Shown: positions 18,704-31,401, counted from the stretch's first letter. The stretch is DNA of 64,000 bases from Promethearchaeati archaeon (GCA_013166775.1 JABLTJ010000014.1:61361-125360), one strand, 5' to 3'. Notes: generated by a model not told the origin, from the letters alone. Program-made: numbers and translations.

Positions 18704-20134
18704 TTAGTATTTTATTTTTTTCCACATTTTCTTAGCTGATTTATTCCCTCCATAACCGAGTAATCTACCAATGTAAGGCCAAATAGGATTCAAGAAAGGA
18801 AGGTTCATAACTATCCAATTAGCGATTTTATGAGGCCATGTATACACATGATTATACTCACAATCTGAGATACAATTTGAGCAATCTCCACCATTTTCTA
18901 ACCAGAATAGATAGCAAGTTTCAACATCTATATACCACTTCTTCACTCCAGGATTGTTACTTACACTGTAGGTTTTGTAAGATGTTTTTTTATCAAATGG
19001 TATAGAAGCACTTGGACACTTATCAGCACAAGTCATGCATGTTTCGCAGAATTTCTCAACGGATTTAGCAAATTTGTAATCTGGTTTATCTGCAACTAAA
19101 GGCATGTCGGTTAGTATCTTAGCAACTCTCACTCTTGGTCCATATTTCTTTGTAATCAGCAGTCCATGTCTTCCAAATCCTCCAAGTCCTGCTTCTATAG
19201 CTAAAGGTACTGATAATCCAAGAGAATTACCTGCTGGAATTGCTTCATATCCTAGGTTCTTAATAAAACTAGCTACTAGAGTTCTAACAAAAGCTTGTTT
19301 TGAATAACCTAAACCAGTCGCTATTCCACTTGGCATTTTTGGTGAAGTATTTATCGCATTGAAATCCATTTCAACTGCAATTACAACAGCGAATTTGATA
19401 TCTTTTGAAATAACATATTCTCTGTCCATTCTATCATGAGAGTAAATCCACTTTGTGTCAAAAGGTGCAATTCCTACGAGATTAGCTCCATAAAGAATTG
19501 CTATTTTCTTAAGGAATTTGGTCATCTCTTCTGGATCTTCAACCTTGTATTTTTGTGGTTTCTGTATATCATAATTTACTAGATCCATTTCTCCTTTCTG
19601 CTGCTGCTCTCTCATCTTTTTAGAATCTTCTTTATTGAGAGTCTTGATTCGATCGGTCATAAATTCCCTCATCGAAACCATGTTTTCTATTGACCAAGCT
19701 GCATCAACAGCTGCACTTTCTAGTTCAGAGTATCCATCTAAACCTTGAGCAGCTCTTTCAGATGCTTTCTCAAAAATAGGTTTCTTGTATCCTTCAAAAT
19801 CTTCATCCCACATTCTTCTTGAAAAAATCGTTAATTTTTCATTGAAAGATTCATAAACATCTGCATTTATCTCAAAAATCTCTTTCTTTTTTTCGTTAGT
19901 TTTCAAGATCTTTGGTGTGATTCGTTTTTTATCATCTATCTCTACTTCAATTGCTTCAAAAGGGCAAACATAAACACATTGTAAACAGTTAATACAATTC
20001 TTATGATTTATTTCTGCGATTTCTTTTTCTATTTTTATCGCTATTTTTCCTTTTTTATTTTGGGGACAAACATCTACGCATTCATGTTCGCATTTATTTG
20101 GAGAACAGATTTTCTCTAAAATAAGAAGACTCAT
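18704..20134 (-). CDS. cobalamin-dependent reductive dehalogenase-family protein with N-terminal RLI-like ferredoxin
   Basis: N-terminal CSPNKCEHECVDVCP and CINCLQCVYVCP; GANLVGIA, LAIEAGLGGFGRHGLLITKKYGPRVR, LTDMPL; CETCMTCADKCP and C-x10-CSNCISDC. Confidence 0.85.
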   Translation of the reverse strand: MSLLILEKICSPNKCEHECVDVCPQNKKGKIAIKIEKEIAEINHKNCINCLQCVYVCPFEAIEVEIDDKKRITPKILKTNEKKKEIFEINADVYESFNEKLTIFSRRMWDEDFEGYKKPIFEKASERAAQGLDGYSELESAAVDAAWSIENMVSMREFMTDRIKTLNKEDSKKMREQQQKGEMDLVNYDIQKPQKYKVEDPEEMTKFLKKIAILYGANLVGIAPFDTKWIYSHDRMDREYVISKDIKFAVVIAVEMDFNAINTSPKMPSGIATGLGYSKQAFVRTLVASFIKNLGYEAIPAGNSLGLSVPLAIEAGLGGFGRHGLLITKKYGPRVRVAKILTDMPLVADKPDYKFAKSVEKFCETCMTCADKCPSASIPFDKKTSYKTYSVSNNPGVKKWYIDVETCYLFWLENGGDCSNCISDCEYNHVYTWPHKIANWIVMNLPFLNPIWPYIGRLLGYGGNKSAKKMWKKIKY

Positions 20135-23206: not shown

Positions 23207-23376
23207 TTGAACCAATCCAACATTACAGATTTTATTCATTTAAAAATCTTGTTTACCTTTACTTCAAAACATAGTTCTTTTGCAGTATAATGAAAATCTA
23301 ATTTGAAATCTGTAAATAATTGCATAAAAATCATTGCAAGGATATACTTATATTTCGCACATTCTTCTTTAGAATT

Positions 23377-24276
23377 ATGATTCGCATAGTAACAGATAGT
23401 GCTTCAGACATTCCTTGGGATTTTGCAAAGGAAAACAAGATCAAAGTTGTTTCTTTGTATGTAATGGTTCATGATGAAGTGTTAGTGGAAGATGAAAATT
23501 TCAATCGAGAGAGCTACTATAAACTCTTCGAGGATGAAAAAGCTTTCTTTAATATTCCAAAACTAAATCTCTATTCATTTGTGCCCAAAACATCTCAACC
23601 AAATCCACAGGATTTCACAAAAGCTTATCTTGAGCTGATAGAAGAAGGAATTAAAGAAATAATCGTTATTAACGTAACAGCGGGATTAAGTGGAACAATA
23701 AATAGCTCAAATTTAGCTGCAAAACAGATAATGAGAAAGAATAAGGATGTAAAGATTCATATAATTGATGCAAAATCAGCTTCTTATCCTGAAGTTTTAC
23801 TAATTAGAATAGCTCTAAAATTAATAAAGAAAGGATATAATGGAGAGAAGATTGCAGAGATTCTTCGAGAACAAGCAATTAAAATTAAGACAGTTATTCT
23901 CTTACCCACGTTGAGATATCTCTGGAAAGGAGGAAGATTGGGAACTTCAAAATTCGTATTAGGATCGATGCTAAGAAAGAAACCAATTGTCACAATGACT
24001 GAAGAAGGAAATGTAATAACTGTAGGATCAGCTAGTGATGTAGAAAGTGGATTAAAAGAATCTTTACGATTGAGTACTGATGATTATACAAAAGAACCAA
24101 AAGCAATTACTATTGTCTATGGTAGTAGTTTAGAATACGCAAACCTATGTTCAGAAATAATCAAAGAAAAATATCCAAAGATGCCTATAGAAATTGCTCA
24201 AAGTGGAGGTTCAGTCTTATCTCATCTTGGACCTGAATCTATTGGTGTAATTTCAGATTTTACTGATGAATTCTAA
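23377..24276 (+). CDS. DegV/FakB family fatty-acid-binding protein
   Basis: IVTDSASD, PKTSQPNP, LSGTINS, IDAKSAS, LWKGGRL, KPI, HLGP; start at MIRIV. Confidence 0.92.
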   Translation: MIRIVTDSASDIPWDFAKENKIKVVSLYVMVHDEVLVEDENFNRESYYKLFEDEKAFFNIPKLNLYSFVPKTSQPNPQDFTKAYLELIEEGIKEIIVINVTAGLSGTINSSNLAAKQIMRKNKDVKIHIIDAKSASYPEVLLIRIALKLIKKGYNGEKIAEILREQAIKIKTVILLPTLRYLWKGGRLGTSKFVLGSMLRKKPIVTMTEEGNVITVGSASDVESGLKESLRLSTDDYTKEPKAITIVYGSSLEYANLCSEIIKEKYPKMPIEIAQSGGSVLSHLGPESIGVISDFTDEF

Positions 24277-24381
24277 ATAAAAATCTCTAGCATATTTAAC
24301 ATTTTCTTCTATTATTTCGCTTTTTTCTTTTTTGAATGAGTAAAACTAAAATATTGCTTTGTAATATATTATTCGTTAATA

Positions 24382-25404
24382 ATGAAAAGAGTAGGTTTAC
24401 CTCGAGCACTAATTCACTATAAGTTTTCTGAATTATGGATACCATTCTTTAAGGAACTTGGTGCTGAGGTAGTTATCTCACCTTTAACAACAAAGAAAAT
24501 AAAAGATATTGCAGTTAGGTCAGCACCAGATGAAGATTGCTATTCAACTAAACTTTATTTTGGTCATGCTTTGGTTCTAAAAGATAAAGTAGATTATTTA
24601 TTCATTCCACGTTATGGGGGTTACCATAAAAATAAGGTTGGGTGTCCTAAGTTTATTGGTTTAGCAGAAGTCTTAAAATCAATGATTCCTAATTTACCTC
24701 CTATTATTATGCCTCATTTTAATCGAGCGAAAGGTGGAGATCCAAGAAGAATTTTACTAAAACGTGCTTTTGAGGTTGGATTAATATTCACAAAGAATCC
24801 TTTCAAGATTTTTCGAGCGATTAAAAAAGCTTTCAAGGCTTTTAAGGAACACAAAAGAATTTTAATTATTGATGAAGAAACTCTTCATAAATGGGAGCTT
24901 TCAGAAATAATCCTAAATGATTTTCCTTTATACAAGGATAATGAAAGACAGCTTAAGATAGCTTTGGTTGGGCATTCTTATGTTCTGAATGACCCATATT
25001 CCTCACTAGACATAAGATCGATTCTTAAAAACCACGGTATAGATATTATTACTTCTGAACAAATGCCAAGAAGATTGATTGAAGAACAAATGGGAAAATT
25101 AGAGAGCGATCTTTATTTTGAATATGAGAGAGAAATTCTTGGGACAATAATGTATTTTCTTGAAAACAAAACTGTTGACGGAATTGTACATCTTATGATA
25201 TTCAGTTGTGGTCCTGATTCTATTGCAGGTGAACTTGCTGCAAGATTATCCAAAAGACATCCTACTATTCCTCTCTTACAATTGGTATTTGATGAGTTGA
25301 CAGGAGAAGCTGGAATGAGAACAAGAATAGAAGCGTTTGTTGATATGTTAAGAAGAAGTGAAGCAGAGCAAGCTATTCTTCTAACAACAAAAATTCACAT
25401 CTAA
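24382..25404 (+). CDS. DUF2229 / 2-hydroxyacyl-CoA dehydratase-like Fe-S subunit (PlsA/Ger reductase-domain-like)
   Basis: VGLPRAL...FFKELGAEVVISP, DEDCYSTK, GCPKF, FSCGPDS, DELTGEAGMRTRIEAF. Confidence 0.85.
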   Translation: MKRVGLPRALIHYKFSELWIPFFKELGAEVVISPLTTKKIKDIAVRSAPDEDCYSTKLYFGHALVLKDKVDYLFIPRYGGYHKNKVGCPKFIGLAEVLKSMIPNLPPIIMPHFNRAKGGDPRRILLKRAFEVGLIFTKNPFKIFRAIKKAFKAFKEHKRILIIDEETLHKWELSEIILNDFPLYKDNERQLKIALVGHSYVLNDPYSSLDIRSILKNHGIDIITSEQMPRRLIEEQMGKLESDLYFEYEREILGTIMYFLENKTVDGIVHLMIFSCGPDSIAGELAARLSKRHPTIPLLQLVFDELTGEAGMRTRIEAFVDMLRRSEAEQAILLTTKIHI

Positions 25405-25419
25405 AGGAGCAAAAAAGAA

Positions 25420-26508
25420 ATGTCACTTTCCTTTCCATATCTGGGAACCTTTAGTTACGTAGTAGAAGCAATAGCGAAAGGAATGAACAGAAAGGATATT
25501 ATTCTTCCACATGAACCTACATACAAAACCAAGCAACTAGGTTCTCGTCATGCTTCAGAGTTTGTATGTACTCCATTCAAAATGCTTCTTGGATCATTGA
25601 TTGAGGTATTAGATCGAGGAGCATATCAGATAATTTTTACTTTGTTTGTAGATTTTTGTAGATTAGGTTACTATTCTCCACTTTTCAAGTTAATTTTAGA
25701 CGATCTTGGATATGATTTTGAATTAATTGATCTAGATTGGCAGAACAAACCTGAATTCTTTAGAAATTTCAAAAAATTGACAGGAGATTTGAGTGCTTGG
25801 CAAGCTTTTCAAGCATTTCGAGTTGGTTGGATAAAGAATAGATATATCGACTATACAGAAGAATTACAATTTAGTTATGGGGCAATTGAAGTAAACAAAG
25901 GATCAACAAGAAGAGTAGCAAAAAAAGCATTTAGACTAATTGTAGAGACAGAAAGAATGAGCAATATCAGAAAACTCCCTGATGTTGTTAAAAAAATGTT
26001 TGAAAATGAAGTTGAAATTGATAAAAAAGCAAATCCACTCAAAATAGGAGTAGTAGGAGAATTATATGCAGTTGTTGAACCTGCAATAAATCTTCACATC
26101 ATGAAACGTTTGAATGATCTTGGTGTAATCACCTATACCCCAATCACTTTTACTCGATGGATAGATTTGGGAAAAAGATTGAACTTCTTCAAGAAACATC
26201 ATCATAAAGAAGCAGTAAAGAGAGCAAAACCTTACTTAGAATATCGTCTTGGAGGAAAAGCACAAGAATCTATTGGGAGTGCAATTTTGTATAAGGAAGA
26301 GGGATGGGATGGAATGATACACCTATATCCATTTACTTGCATGCCAGAAATCATCTCAAGGAGTATACTACCACAGGTTAGTAAGGAATATGATTTTCCT
26401 ATTCTATCTCTTGTATTAGATGAACACACTGGTGAAGCTGGTTTACAAACAAGATTAGAAGCTTATGTTGATTTACTTGATCGAAAGAGAAGAGGAGATT
26501 TTAAATAA
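25420..26508 (+). CDS. 2-hydroxyacyl-CoA dehydratase-like Fe-S subunit (PlsR-like)
   Basis: VCTPFK, FCRLGYY, KIGVVGELY, PFTCMPE, DEHTGEAGLQTRLEAY. Confidence 0.85.
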   Translation: MSLSFPYLGTFSYVVEAIAKGMNRKDIILPHEPTYKTKQLGSRHASEFVCTPFKMLLGSLIEVLDRGAYQIIFTLFVDFCRLGYYSPLFKLILDDLGYDFELIDLDWQNKPEFFRNFKKLTGDLSAWQAFQAFRVGWIKNRYIDYTEELQFSYGAIEVNKGSTRRVAKKAFRLIVETERMSNIRKLPDVVKKMFENEVEIDKKANPLKIGVVGELYAVVEPAINLHIMKRLNDLGVITYTPITFTRWIDLGKRLNFFKKHHHKEAVKRAKPYLEYRLGGKAQESIGSAILYKEEGWDGMIHLYPFTCMPEIISRSILPQVSKEYDFPILSLVLDEHTGEAGLQTRLEAYVDLLDRKRRGDFK

Positions 26509-26529
26509 AAAGAAGAATGAGGTTATGAA

Positions 26530-27510
26530 ATGACTCAAAGTGTAGAAAGGTATTATTTGGGAGTAGATGTTGGTTCCATCAGCACAAATTTAGCAGTGAT
26601 TGATCAATCAAAAGAATTAATAGATTCAGTCTATTTAAGAACAGAGGGTAGGCCTGTAAATTCTGTGCAAAAAGGAATAAAGTTAATGAGAGATAAAATT
26701 GGAGAGGATCTCGATATTTCTGGAGCAGGATCAACAGGAAGTGCTAGAAAATTGACCGGAGTAATTGTAGGAGCTGATATAGTAAAGAACGAAATTACCG
26801 CTCATGCGTTAGCTTCTTTGCATTACAACCCAGATATTCAGACAGTTATGGAAATAGGGGGGCAAGATAGCAAAATAATAATCATTAGGAATAGCATTGT
26901 TGTAGATTTCGCGATGAATACTGTTTGTGCAGCTGGGACAGGTTCATTCTTAGATATGCAAGCAAGTAGATTGGATATTCCAATTGAGAATTTTGGAAGA
27001 CTGGCATTAAAATCAGAAAATGCTGTTTCTATAGCTGGAAGATGTACTGTATTTGCTGAAAGTGATATGATTCATAAGCAACAACTAGGTCATCCAACAG
27101 AAGATATCATCAAAGGTTTATGCGAAGCACTTGCACGAAATTATCTAAATAATGTTGGAAAAGGAAAGGATATCAAACCACCAATCATGTTTCAAGGTGG
27201 AGTTGCTGCAAATGCTGGTATGCGAGAAGCTTTCGAAAAATATTTGGAAAAAGAGATTCTAATTCCTGAATATTATGATGTAATGGGAGCTATCGGGGCA
27301 GCAATTCTTGCACAGGAAGATAAAGAAAGAAAGAAAAAACATACAGATTCAAAATTCTTTGGATGGGACATTCCAGATATGAAGTTTAATACAACAGGAT
27401 TTGAGTGTGATGGTTGCCCTAATATCTGCGAAATTGTTGAGATTCGTAAAAATGAGGAGTTAATTGCTAGATGGGGGAGTAGATGTGGAAAATGGGATGT
27501 AGCAGATTAG
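26530..27510 (+). CDS. ATP-dependent acyl-CoA dehydratase activase (BadF/BadG/BcrA/BcrD family)
   Basis: LGVDVGSIST, EIGGQDSK, MNTVCAAGTGSFL, GRCTVFAESD, QGGVAAN; C-terminal CDGCPNIC...SRC. Confidence 0.93.
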   Translation: MTQSVERYYLGVDVGSISTNLAVIDQSKELIDSVYLRTEGRPVNSVQKGIKLMRDKIGEDLDISGAGSTGSARKLTGVIVGADIVKNEITAHALASLHYNPDIQTVMEIGGQDSKIIIIRNSIVVDFAMNTVCAAGTGSFLDMQASRLDIPIENFGRLALKSENAVSIAGRCTVFAESDMIHKQQLGHPTEDIIKGLCEALARNYLNNVGKGKDIKPPIMFQGGVAANAGMREAFEKYLEKEILIPEYYDVMGAIGAAILAQEDKERKKKHTDSKFFGWDIPDMKFNTTGFECDGCPNICEIVEIRKNEELIARWGSRCGKWDVAD

Positions 27511-28383: not shown

Positions 28384-29478
28384 TCATCTCCAGTCAAAAT
28401 AAAATGATTCGATTTCCTCAGGTATTGGAATATTTTTTAAGTTAAATAAATCTAAATTGACTTTGTTTTCAAAAAAGAAGAATTTAGCCTTTTTCAAAGG
28501 TTTCATATCAAAGTAAGGAATGTAAGGTGTCTGTAAACCAAACCATCCCTTTTCTTTTGATTTCTGACACAGATAATTTGATAAATTAGTAGCTTCTTTT
28601 ACATTCAACCTATGAATATGAACCATATCGAGCCAGCCATAGGGAATCTTATTTCCAAGTCCTGCAAGGAGAAATTCCCAAGCTAATATAAAACCTTGAA
28701 CCTTTCCATTTTTGTCTTCATGTACAACACAAACTACATGTGGATTTTCCAACATCCATTTTAAATCATCAAGTTCGGGAACTATAGATAATTGATTTCG
28801 TTCTACTTGCTCTTGGATAATCTCATATATGTCAGGTATGTCTTTCTCTTGAAAAGCTCTTATCTGTTTTGAATCAATGATTTTATACTTTTGAAAGAAC
28901 TTGAAAACTAGTTTTTCGTACCATCTTAGTCTGACTACTTTAGATACAGTATTTACATCAAAAGCTTTGATAACAAATTTGTTCAGAGTAACTACTCTTT
29001 GGAAAGGTAAATTCATCTCCCTGGATACGGAAGTAGAGACATCGACACCATGTTGATCTGGCTCGTGGAAAGAGAAACCTCCATGATAATCACTTGATAT
29101 TCCAATTTCCCATAGCTTTAAACCCATCCTTTTAGCAAGACCTTTTCTCTGATGATCAGAATGTACACACAACCAAGACGGAATAGCAAAATTGTAAACC
29201 TTCCCCATAATTGAGAGATTTCTAGGAATTGAGCCTAAGAATCCAACCATTTTTCCTGTTGGCTTATGGATAGCTCTAATGAAAAGATCCTTGTCAACAG
29301 AAGGAGCGCCGTACATAATGTTGAAAGTATCTTCTGAAAAAGCAACTGTCGCACCTTCTTTTAAGGCATTTTCATCATTTACAAACGCTTGAGTAATTAA
29401 TTTGGAGAATTCTTCAAATTTCTCTTTCTCAATAGTAAATTGTTCAATGAGATAATCATCAGAGTTTTTACTTATCAA
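28384..29478 (-). CDS. tandem-GNAT acyltransferase, N-myristoyltransferase-like
   Basis: GKMVGFLGSIP, WLCVHSDHQRKGLA, IRAFQEKDIP, HEDKNGKVQGFI, KEKGW, PLKKAKF, LFNLK, in the same order as remembered eukaryotic NMT motifs. Confidence 0.75.
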   Translation of the reverse strand: MISKNSDDYLIEQFTIEKEKFEEFSKLITQAFVNDENALKEGATVAFSEDTFNIMYGAPSVDKDLFIRAIHKPTGKMVGFLGSIPRNLSIMGKVYNFAIPSWLCVHSDHQRKGLAKRMGLKLWEIGISSDYHGGFSFHEPDQHGVDVSTSVSREMNLPFQRVVTLNKFVIKAFDVNTVSKVVRLRWYEKLVFKFFQKYKIIDSKQIRAFQEKDIPDIYEIIQEQVERNQLSIVPELDDLKWMLENPHVVCVVHEDKNGKVQGFILAWEFLLAGLGNKIPYGWLDMVHIHRLNVKEATNLSNYLCQKSKEKGWFGLQTPYIPYFDMKPLKKAKFFFFENKVNLDLFNLKNIPIPEEIESFYFDWR

Positions 29479-29539: not shown

Positions 29540-30100
29540 TTACAACTGTCTACCTGATAAGAAAATTTCATCAATGAATGATGTTATTGATCTTCTTTCT
29601 TCGAAATTTAACTGCAGATCTGTTTTACTGATAGTAACTAACTTGTTCCAGATATTACTTGTTTCACTTAAAATATTTGAAAATTCATCTAGTCTTTTTA
29701 TAGCATGAAAGGATTTTCCTACAAAGAAATAACAGAAGAACAAAGAGTCTAATTGCTTCATAATGTAAGAGTAATCATACAATTTACCACGTTTAACTAT
29801 GTCAAAATCAGTTGTAATCTCAAGATTTTCTATGATGTAGGGATCTGTTTCTTCTCCTGACCCTGTAAAATTATAGTTAAGAAAATCTTCATTAGAACCA
29901 ATTTCAATAGGTTCATGGGGTGCTAACTGCAGTAAAATACTGATTTTAGATAGGTTAATTGTGGGAAAGAAATCATTAGTTTTTGGTTGATTATAATATT
30001 GAAAAGAATCTAAACTACTATCTTCGATTTGACAGCTATTCTGAGGTAAGATTGAAGAGATTGGTATCATTATAATTAGGAATATTAAAGCAATAATCAA
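29540..30100 (-). pseudogene. chimeric, internally deleted gene: beta-helix surface-protein N-cap joined to a longin-like C-terminal fragment
   Basis: Signal peptide and PHEPIEI...GSGEETDPYIIENL (as in 14933 and 43146), then no beta-helix repeats; ends YIMKQLDSLFFCYFFVGKSFHAIKRLDEF. Confidence 0.55.
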
Positions 30101-30205: not shown

Positions 30206-31162
30206 TTAGTATGTCACGCCTAATCTTTTGCTGATGCCATCAAGCATTACTTTAACCATATCCTCAAACTCAAATTCAGGTTGCCAACCCCATTCTTCTC
30301 TAGCGACAGAATCATCTAGTGATTGTGGCCATGTTCGAGCTATCCCATCTCTGAAATCGGGTTCATAAGTAATCTCAAATTCAGGGATATATTTCTTGAT
30401 TTCATCAGCTAATTCTGCAGGAGTAAAACTCATAGCAGTAACATTGAATGCGCGATGTTTGAGTTTCTCATAAGGAGCTTCAATCAAATCAAAAGTAGAC
30501 TTCAGACAATCACTCATTAACATCATTGGTAACCTTACATCTGCTCCAAGGAAACAAGTATATTTCTTTTTCTTGAGAGCTTCATAAAAGATCCAAATAG
30601 CATAATCAGTAGTTCCTCCACCTGGTTCTTCAGGGCTTAAAACACCAGGATAGCGTAAACTCCTGAAATCCATTCCATACTTTTTATTGTAATAATTTCC
30701 CATAAGTTCAGTATAGACTTTTGATATACCATAAATAGAAGTAGGTTCCATTATTGTTGTATTGGGAGTATCCACTAAGGGAGTTGTTGGACCAAAAGCA
30801 GCTATTGAGGAAGGAGCAAAAAGTTGTTCAAGATTTAGTTCTCTTGAAGCTTCCAATGCATTATAGAATCCTTCAAAATTAATCGAATGTGCAAGTTGTG
30901 GATTCTTTTCTCCAGTTGCTGAAAGCACTGAAGCATTATGAATGAGAATATCAACATCATATTCCACTAACAATGATCTTAATCCATACTGATCTCTAAT
31001 ATCTAATCTATGATAAATAACATCCAACTCTTTGAAGAGAGGGATTCTCTTTTTCCTACCAGTTGCAATAACATTTTCTTTTCCATATTTCTTCATCATA
31101 GCAGGTATTAGTGCTTGACCGATCTGACCATATGATCCCGTAATTAAGAATCGTTTTGTCAT
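30206..31162 (-). CDS. tdh: L-threonine 3-dehydrogenase (extended SDR type)
   Basis: ITGSYGQIG, LSATGE, PSSIAAFG, YGISK, PGGGTTDYA, WPQSLDDS; AAGGTGA RBS before MTKR. Confidence 0.88.
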   Translation of the reverse strand: MTKRFLITGSYGQIGQALIPAMMKKYGKENVIATGRKKRIPLFKELDVIYHRLDIRDQYGLRSLLVEYDVDILIHNASVLSATGEKNPQLAHSINFEGFYNALEASRELNLEQLFAPSSIAAFGPTTPLVDTPNTTIMEPTSIYGISKVYTELMGNYYNKKYGMDFRSLRYPGVLSPEEPGGGTTDYAIWIFYEALKKKKYTCFLGADVRLPMMLMSDCLKSTFDLIEAPYEKLKHRAFNVTAMSFTPAELADEIKKYIPEFEITYEPDFRDGIARTWPQSLDDSVAREEWGWQPEFEFEDMVKVMLDGISKRLGVTY

Positions 31163-31401
31163 GATTTTCACCTTAAAGCTAATACCAGAATCAAATGCTT
31201 TTTTAAAAATCTATTGCAATGATATCATCAAAGATTATTTGAACACAGTTGTGCTTATCTCCTCTAGAAGTATTACATTAGGTTTTAAATTGTTCAAATT
31301 TTCATCTTTTCTTTTTGAAAAACTTTATAATAAGCAAAATTTAGCCTATAATAATTATAACAGAAGACAATGTTATAAGTATCCATACTTGGGATGGGCA
31401 A

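Follow-up and report, generated by a model that had tools for sequence, protein, structure and literature searches.

A putative self-contained, unfused radical-enzyme cassette of the DUF2229 branch beside a DegV gene in a Heimdall-group Asgard archaeon

The window analysed here is a 64 kb stretch of contig C16 (61361-125360) in the 3.85-Mb genome, 88.7% complete, of a Heimdall-group Asgard archaeon. On its + strand, four co-oriented open reading frames (ORFs) occupy 23320/23377-27510 and encode a DegV-family protein, two related iron-sulfur subunits (alpha and beta) and an ATP-dependent activase. We propose, with a probability of roughly 55%, that the last three genes (24382-27510) form a self-contained, unfused radical enzyme of the DUF2229 branch, hereafter type A, which would perform ATP-driven ketyl chemistry, and that the DegV gene is a chance neighbour. 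The original prediction had read all four genes together as a split synthase of fatty-acyl ether lipids, resembling the bacterial PlsA/PlsR and Ger enzymes.

The alpha subunit (24382-25404, 340 aa), a Red1 module, matches the DUF2229 profile (PF09989) with 141 bits over positions 1-216 of 218, and ends in a tail recognised by the HGD-D profile (PF06050, 28 bits, profile positions 268-342 only). The beta subunit (25420-26508, 362 aa), a Red2 or PlsR-like module, is a paralogue of alpha with 30% identity to it; its DUF2229 match is weak, and its HGD-D match covers tail positions 278-341 only (21 bits). Three cysteines in each subunit (C53, C88 and C276 in alpha, C50, C80 and C307 in beta) are invariant in an alignment of 183 alpha and 177 beta modules from all groups. 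The third gene (26530-27510, 326 aa) encodes an ASKHA-type, ATP-dependent activase of the BcrAD type (PF01869, 174 bits; TIGR00241, 185 bits), the C-terminus of which reads FECDGCPNICE...GSRC, that is CxxCxNxC...C. Gaps within this trio are 15 nt between alpha and beta and 21 nt between beta and the activase. Upstream lies the gene for the DegV/FakB-family fatty-acid-binding protein (23377-24276, 299 aa; PF02645, 188 bits; TIGR00762, 207 bits), whose ORF opens at a TTG at 23320 and has an ATG at 23377; it scores 111 bits with the FakB1 equivalog profile, which has a cut-off of 350. Both profiles and ORFs bear out the four-gene set first described, with its DegV, its two DUF2229/HGD-D-type Fe-S subunits and its BcrAD-type activase carrying the cysteine motif.

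Modelled with AlphaFold (mean pLDDT 82), alpha has the fold of the catalytic subunits of classical 2-hydroxyacyl-CoA dehydratases and benzoyl-CoA reductases. The top Foldseek matches of the model were 3O3M, 7YZM, 6ENO, 8S02 and 9G87 (probability 1.00, TM about 0.5), and the best folds were those of HadB/C, DCCP, BzdNO and MbdON. Sequence similarity of alpha to solved structures is restricted to the last ~70 residues. A PDB sequence search returned no solved structure of the DUF2229 class, only tail-level matches to DCCP and HadC, and DCCP was the best profile match (E 4e-4).

Fused proteins of 1,350-1,490 residues run in the order activase-activase-alpha-like-beta-like and are colinear with the three split genes. 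A Cys-rich module, FxCxxCxNxCE...G(S/G)(R/K)C, follows their second activase domain, and the same module forms the tail of every split activase examined, from Asgard archaea and Chloroflexota alike. Activators of the HgdC/HadI type in the PDB, 260-276 residues long, are too short for such a tail. No full-length HGD-D protein was found by a profile search of the whole source genome. Because of the colinear modules, the common Cys tail, the 3+3 cysteines and the lack of a full-length HGD-D match, we place the trio in the DUF2229 (PlsA/PlsR/Ger) branch of the benzoyl-CoA reductase/2-hydroxyacyl-CoA dehydratase superfamily, and not among the classical dehydratases of amino-acid fermentation. The proposed likeness to the PlsA/PlsR/Ger domain set was therefore correct, as was the distinction from HgdAB and BcrBC, of which the subunits match only the HGD-D tail.

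Within this branch the cassette stands apart from the enzymes of tested function. PlsA/PlsR (CPE1194/1195 of Clostridium perfringens, and single-gene forms in Enterococcus and Lactococcus) share with it the BcrAD-type activase, the DUF2229 Red1 and the PlsR-like Red2 modules, the Cys-rich tail after the activase and the three invariant cysteines in each Red module. However, the cassette has a single free activase domain where PlsA/PlsR have two in tandem, its gene order is alpha-beta-activase, its alpha is only ~24-28% identical to alpha modules of the fused type and falls in a separate clade, and it has no linked glycerolipid gene. Ger (Tmari_0479 of Thermotoga maritima; SHJ90043 of Desulfatibacillum alkenivorans) belongs to the same superfamily branch and has the same module set, but the window cassette represents a different, unfused clade. 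All confirmed ether-lipid producers keep a "BBD" architecture, in which two tandem activase domains are fused to the reductase (PMC13159169). The window cassette has one activase domain, in its own gene. The BBD architecture is found instead in another protein of the source genome, a fused PlsA/Ger-type protein of 1,393 residues (activase-activase-DUF2229-HGD-D) encoded at C14:62121-66302 on the - strand; the immediate neighbours of its gene have no Pfam match, and the second of its activase domains is 36% identical to the window activase. This fused gene is the better ether-lipid candidate of the source genome.

The phylogeny of the alpha modules, rooted with beta modules, was obtained with FastTree on 107 rows and with IQ-TREE under a C20 mixture on 48 and on 58 rows, the IQ-TREE runs being quick searches with support from the Shimodaira-Hasegawa-like approximate likelihood ratio test (SH-aLRT) only; supports are given below in this order. 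The window alpha lies in type A, an Asgard clade (98/94/99) which includes Heimdall, Promethearchaeum and Lokiarchaeum sequences and a few metagenome-assembled genomes (MAGs) labelled Bathyarchaeia or Thorarchaeota. The 1,400-residue PlsA/Ger-type proteins, including the C14 protein, form a fused clade (100/99/100), which was defined by its BB-alpha-beta architecture, the T. maritima Ger and C. perfringens PlsA/PlsR sequences not being in the trees. A second split Asgard clade, type B (support 98), is sister to the fused clade in the 58-row tree (SH-aLRT 94), and the window alpha falls outside the group made of these two. Chloroflexota sequences, which comprise split forms and 700-residue alpha-beta fusions, form a clade in the 58-row tree only (support 98), and not a single clade in the other two. 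Type B resembles the window cassette in having unfused alpha, beta and activase, and its activases are 54-56% identical to that of the window, with the same Cys tail; its alphas, however, are just 32-38% identical to the window alpha.

Type B also differs in its surroundings. A PF01553 (PlsC-like) acyltransferase gene lies directly upstream in 17 of 17 type-B loci, these being the ones found with the window alpha (about 35% identity) when the whole phylum was searched, and likewise in both cultured Lokiarchaeia; the PlsC-linked cassette is thus kept across another Asgard family as well as in the two cultures. Both cultures have two split alpha genes; to these Promethearchaeum syntrophicum adds one fused gene and Lokiarchaeum ossiferum three. 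Their second split loci (332000-347000 and 3417000-3432000, respectively) read PF01553 acyltransferase(s)-alpha-beta-activase-RagA/Gtr1-like GTPase. A search of the source genome found neither type B nor a PF01553 gene. There are, then, at least three lineages of PlsA/Ger-like gene sets in Asgard genomes: the fused one, the PlsC-linked type B, and type A. The subunits of the window fall neither within the fused PlsA/Ger-type clade nor within its PlsC-linked split sister, and instead form the separate Asgard clade.

The link with DegV was followed in 69 related loci, annotated over up to 8 kb of flank with hidden Markov models made from the proteins of the source genome; the genomes are close kin, so that locus counts are not independent. 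None of the 69 had a DegV gene, and 48 of the 52 Asgard alpha genes are preceded by over 1.2 kb of sequence, room enough for one to show. Conversely, 11 congeneric genomes have an orthologue of the window DegV (69-81% identity), in none of them followed by alpha. Two of these 11 retain beside it the divergent IMPDH gene that also neighbours the window DegV. In one of the 11 (L125), DegV directly abuts an orthologue (82% identity) of the window gene 30206-31171. Because the two genes adjoin there, the block from 24382 to about 30100 is an apparent lineage-specific insertion or rearrangement; it contains the cassette, two small ORFs, an NMT-like GNAT gene (28384-29478) and an ORF at 29540-30100.

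The 105-nt spacer between DegV and alpha (24277-24381), read directly, shows oligo-T runs and, after them, an AT-rich, TATA-like stretch. It is predicted to hold, probably, a DegV terminator and a promoter of the cassette's own, a pattern that would fit separate transcription units for DegV and alpha. Chance adjacency would be unremarkable, since the source genome has about 15 DegV genes. The degV linkage is thus not conserved, an outcome that the ether-lipid proposal had itself named as speaking against it, and DegV is probably outside the cassette, a chance neighbour instead of a dedicated partner; we consider functional coupling between DegV and the enzyme very unlikely.

In contrast to the DegV linkage, the trio itself recurs. 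Of 52 Asgard type-A loci, 24 have the order alpha-beta-activase, as do 12 of the 14 Chloroflexota loci, which is why we regard it as a self-contained unit; what lies on either side varies, even between the window cassette and its nearest relatives. No activase gene adjoins at least 15 Asgard alpha-beta pairs of other genomes, although the sequence downstream of them is long enough to show one. In one Heimdallarchaeota MAG (12F4_9, locus L061), one activase gene, apparently split, lies between two type-A alpha-beta pairs, an arrangement that fits a single activase serving several pairs. Several other genes recur near type-A loci (ABC exporter, NosD/beta-helix, HEAT, TPR, GNAT, radical SAM, H+-PPase and NIPA-like transporter genes), and were set aside as they suggest no coherent pathway.

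Three type-A alpha/beta pairs are complete in the source genome, and a further alpha, the fourth, is a fragment lying at the end of a contig. Identities among these paralogues are 60-67% for the alphas and 45-58% for the betas. Two of the pairs, both on contig C75, are without an activase. The first (C75:59632-61717) is divergent from a gene for a PatB-family C-S lyase (476 bits, cut-off 340), and an OCD-family gene, a beta-lactamase-fold hydrolase gene and an M1-like peptidase gene are close by. The second (C75:152903-154986) has a co-oriented Met/Asp-type aminotransferase gene 63 nt upstream and an adjoining DUF5700 peptidase gene. Adjacency to a gene for a pyridoxal phosphate-dependent enzyme is seen in at least 6 other Heimdall genomes as well. 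A search of the source genome with PF01869 matched only the window activase and the fused protein. With no other free activase found, that of the window probably acts on the two C75 pairs too.

HgdC/HadI, HadBC and PlsA suggest by analogy how such an enzyme might work. The activase, which has an extra Cys4 module, presumably forms a homodimer around a bridging [4Fe-4S] cluster and would hydrolyse ATP to drive a low-potential electron into an alpha/beta heterodimer. Alpha and beta would each hold a [4Fe-4S] cluster bound by three cysteines, with one open iron. The carbonyl of an acyl ester or thioester may bind this open iron and be converted to a ketyl radical, from which reduction and/or dehydration would follow. 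The sequences show the family, the module order and the cofactor ligands; the electron flow, a shared activase and the class of substrate are inferred. As to the substrate, amino-acid-derived (2-hydroxy/oxo)acyl thioesters or esters are a tentative choice, glycerolipid esters are unlikely, and it is not far from an even bet that the substrate is something else. The glycerolipid assignment is disfavoured because the window alpha lies outside the lipid-linked clade, the genome has a fused gene of its own, the paralogues neighbour amino-acid-catabolic genes, and the lipids reported for P. syntrophicum MK-D1 (see below) do not include the expected products.

Several observations weigh against the proposal of a self-contained type-A enzyme with a chance DegV neighbour, or against parts of it. 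The genome is incomplete, so a second activase could be missing. A lipid substrate could be ancestral and retained in type A, a conceivable course since membrane glycerolipid esters are what PlsA/PlsR and Ger, the only DUF2229-branch members of tested function, work on (PMC13159169, PMC9702350). The 58-row tree does not settle how type A, the Chloroflexota clade and the group of type B plus fused proteins branch from one another. A gene of lipid flavour, DegV, does adjoin the cassette in the source genome, and in three Promethearchaeum genomes the gene immediately before the type-A cassette encodes an SCP2 protein. CarS-like genes (CDP-archaeol synthase family) occur within about 3 kb in two lineages, at L040:12795-13634 in P. 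syntrophicum and at L009:3292-3861 on contig C75 of the source genome; this adjacency was set aside as a lipid clue, being seen in just two independent lineages. Genes for a CoA-transferase and a 2-hydroxyacid dehydrogenase usually accompany 2-hydroxyacyl-CoA dehydratases, but the neighbours that recur in 53 Asgard loci include neither, CoA-transferases not having been searched genome-wide. Finally, the window-type subclade is itself without a conserved functional neighbour, and the hint of amino-acid metabolism comes from the paralogues only.

The alternative that survives best, although we find it doubtful, is a fermentative dehydratase of amino-acid-derived 2-hydroxyacyl-CoA or similar compounds, an Asgard counterpart of HgdAB/HadBC/FldBC in which one activase would serve several substrate-specific pairs. 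Single activators are known to serve 2-hydroxyacyl-CoA dehydratases in clostridia. The PatB C-S lyase, aminotransferase, OCD-family and peptidase genes beside the paralogous pairs point in this direction. So do the genes for an iron-containing alcohol dehydrogenase, an aldehyde ferredoxin oxidoreductase (AFOR) and an acyl-CoA ligase near the P. syntrophicum type-A cassette, which lie beyond the SCP2 gene directly upstream of it; AFOR genes were found near type-A cassettes in six loci. Cultured Asgard archaea do ferment amino acids (PMC7015854). (R)-2-hydroxyisocaproyl-CoA dehydratase, HadBC with HadI (PDB 3O3M, 4EHT), is the best structural match of the alpha model and, like the predicted enzyme of the cassette, combines a heterodimer having one three-Cys [4Fe-4S] cluster per subunit with an ATP-dependent ASKHA activator. 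Yet the sequence similarity of alpha to HadBC is confined to the last ~70 residues, HadI-type activators (260-270 residues) lack the C-terminal Cys4 module of the window activase, and no CoA-transferase gene stands beside the cassette. More generally, the subunits are of the DUF2229 class, with HGD-D matches limited to the last 65-75 positions, and neither the recurrent neighbours named above nor those of the window-type subclade supply the partners that such a pathway would lead one to expect.

A split ester-to-ether lipid synthase, as first proposed for this locus, is in our view improbable. In that scheme DegV would deliver fatty acids, PlsY would esterify them to glycerol phosphate, and the trio would reduce the sn-1 ester to an alkyl or vinyl ether in the manner of Ger or PlsA/PlsR. 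The exact match to the PlsA/PlsR/Ger domain set speaks for it, as do type B, a paralogous clade of split forms that in Asgard archaea shares operons with PlsC-type acyltransferases, and the SCP2 gene upstream of the type-A cassette in Promethearchaeum. The lipid-gene inventory of the source genome favours it in part: a genome search for fakA, plsY, plsC and gpsA gave five PlsY-family genes, no PlsC (PF01553), weak matches only for GpsA, and no full FakA but two stand-alone Dak2 kinase-domain proteins (218 and 227 aa). With about 15 DegV, five PlsY and two Dak2 proteins, the fatty-acid-handling gene set is unusual for an archaeon. A cluster PlsY-(514 aa)-DegV at C73:6539-9922 holds the closest paralogue (45%) of the window DegV.

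On the other side, the DegV adjacency is confined to the source genome and would be unremarkable as chance with so many copies, type A lies outside the group of type B plus fused proteins, and the fused PlsA/Ger-type protein would already cover the role in a genome where no PF01553 acyltransferase was found. In addition, all three forms, type A, type B and fused, are present in P. syntrophicum MK-D1, and yet only phytane and biphytanes were reported among its lipids after ether cleavage (PMC7015854), although a later paper points out that the method used may have missed ester lipids (PMC13400652). Of the claim of a fatty-acyl ether-lipid synthase, the module set therefore stands, whereas the DegV coupling and the clade placement do not, and the claim as a whole is weakly supported. 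A bolder variant seems to us quite improbable: type A would be an undescribed Asgard-wide family in which one activase serves several substrate-specific pairs, and at least one pair, possibly that of the window, would reduce acyl-glycerol esters made by DegV, Dak2 and PlsY to non-isoprenoid ether lipids. If this were true, Heimdall archaea would have a second ether-lipid route beside the fused Ger homologue.

DCCP is a homodimer in which a double-cubane [8Fe-9S] cluster is bound via six cysteines. A DCCP-like, ATP-dependent reductase of small unsaturated molecules, belonging neither to lipid nor to amino-acid metabolism, is highly improbable for the cassette: DCCP with DCCP-R (PDB 6ENO, 7YYL) gives the best PDB sequence-profile match to alpha, on the tail only, and one of the top folds, and the variable gene context is uninformative, but the cassette has distinct alpha and beta subunits with 3+3 cysteines in place of the six-cysteine homodimer.

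"Ger homologs" in Loki- and Heimdallarchaeota have already been published (PMC13159169). That search demanded at least 30% query coverage (PMC13159169), and since separate proteins of 326-362 residues cannot reach 30% of a query of ~1,400 residues, the published archaeal hits are probably fused genes of 1,390-1,440 residues, not proteins of the window type. Unfused DUF2229 systems in Asgard archaea appear to be new: our literature search found no paper describing them, and none linking Asgard archaea to 2-hydroxyacyl- or 2-hydroxyglutaryl-CoA dehydratases. Mentions of DUF2229 in the literature include the Ger study and an unrelated study of hydrocarbon degradation. The supplements of Imachi 2020 make no mention of activase, hydroxyglutaryl, benzoyl-CoA reductase, hydroxyacyl-CoA dehydratase or DegV.

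Elsewhere in the window, a protein of the reductive-dehalogenase family is encoded at 18704-20134 on the - strand (TIGR02486, 201 bits); its N-terminal di-cluster ferredoxin domain resembles the Fe-S domain of RLI/ABCE1.

Among known archaea, the Asgard group are the nearest relatives of eukaryotes, and any capacity they have for fatty-acid-based lipids bears on the origin of the eukaryotic membrane. The window instance adds little to the question of the lipid divide, because the sole lipid clue of its cassette, DegV, fails, and not every split PlsA/Ger-like gene set in Asgard genomes should be counted as evidence for ether lipids. The candidates for lipid synthesis are the fused form and the PlsC-linked type B, while type A is a separate, multi-copy lineage with paralogues beside amino-acid-catabolic genes. 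This split into lineages gives experimenters a clear order of priority, and type A draws attention to a large family of radical enzymes that is present in both cultured Lokiarchaeia.

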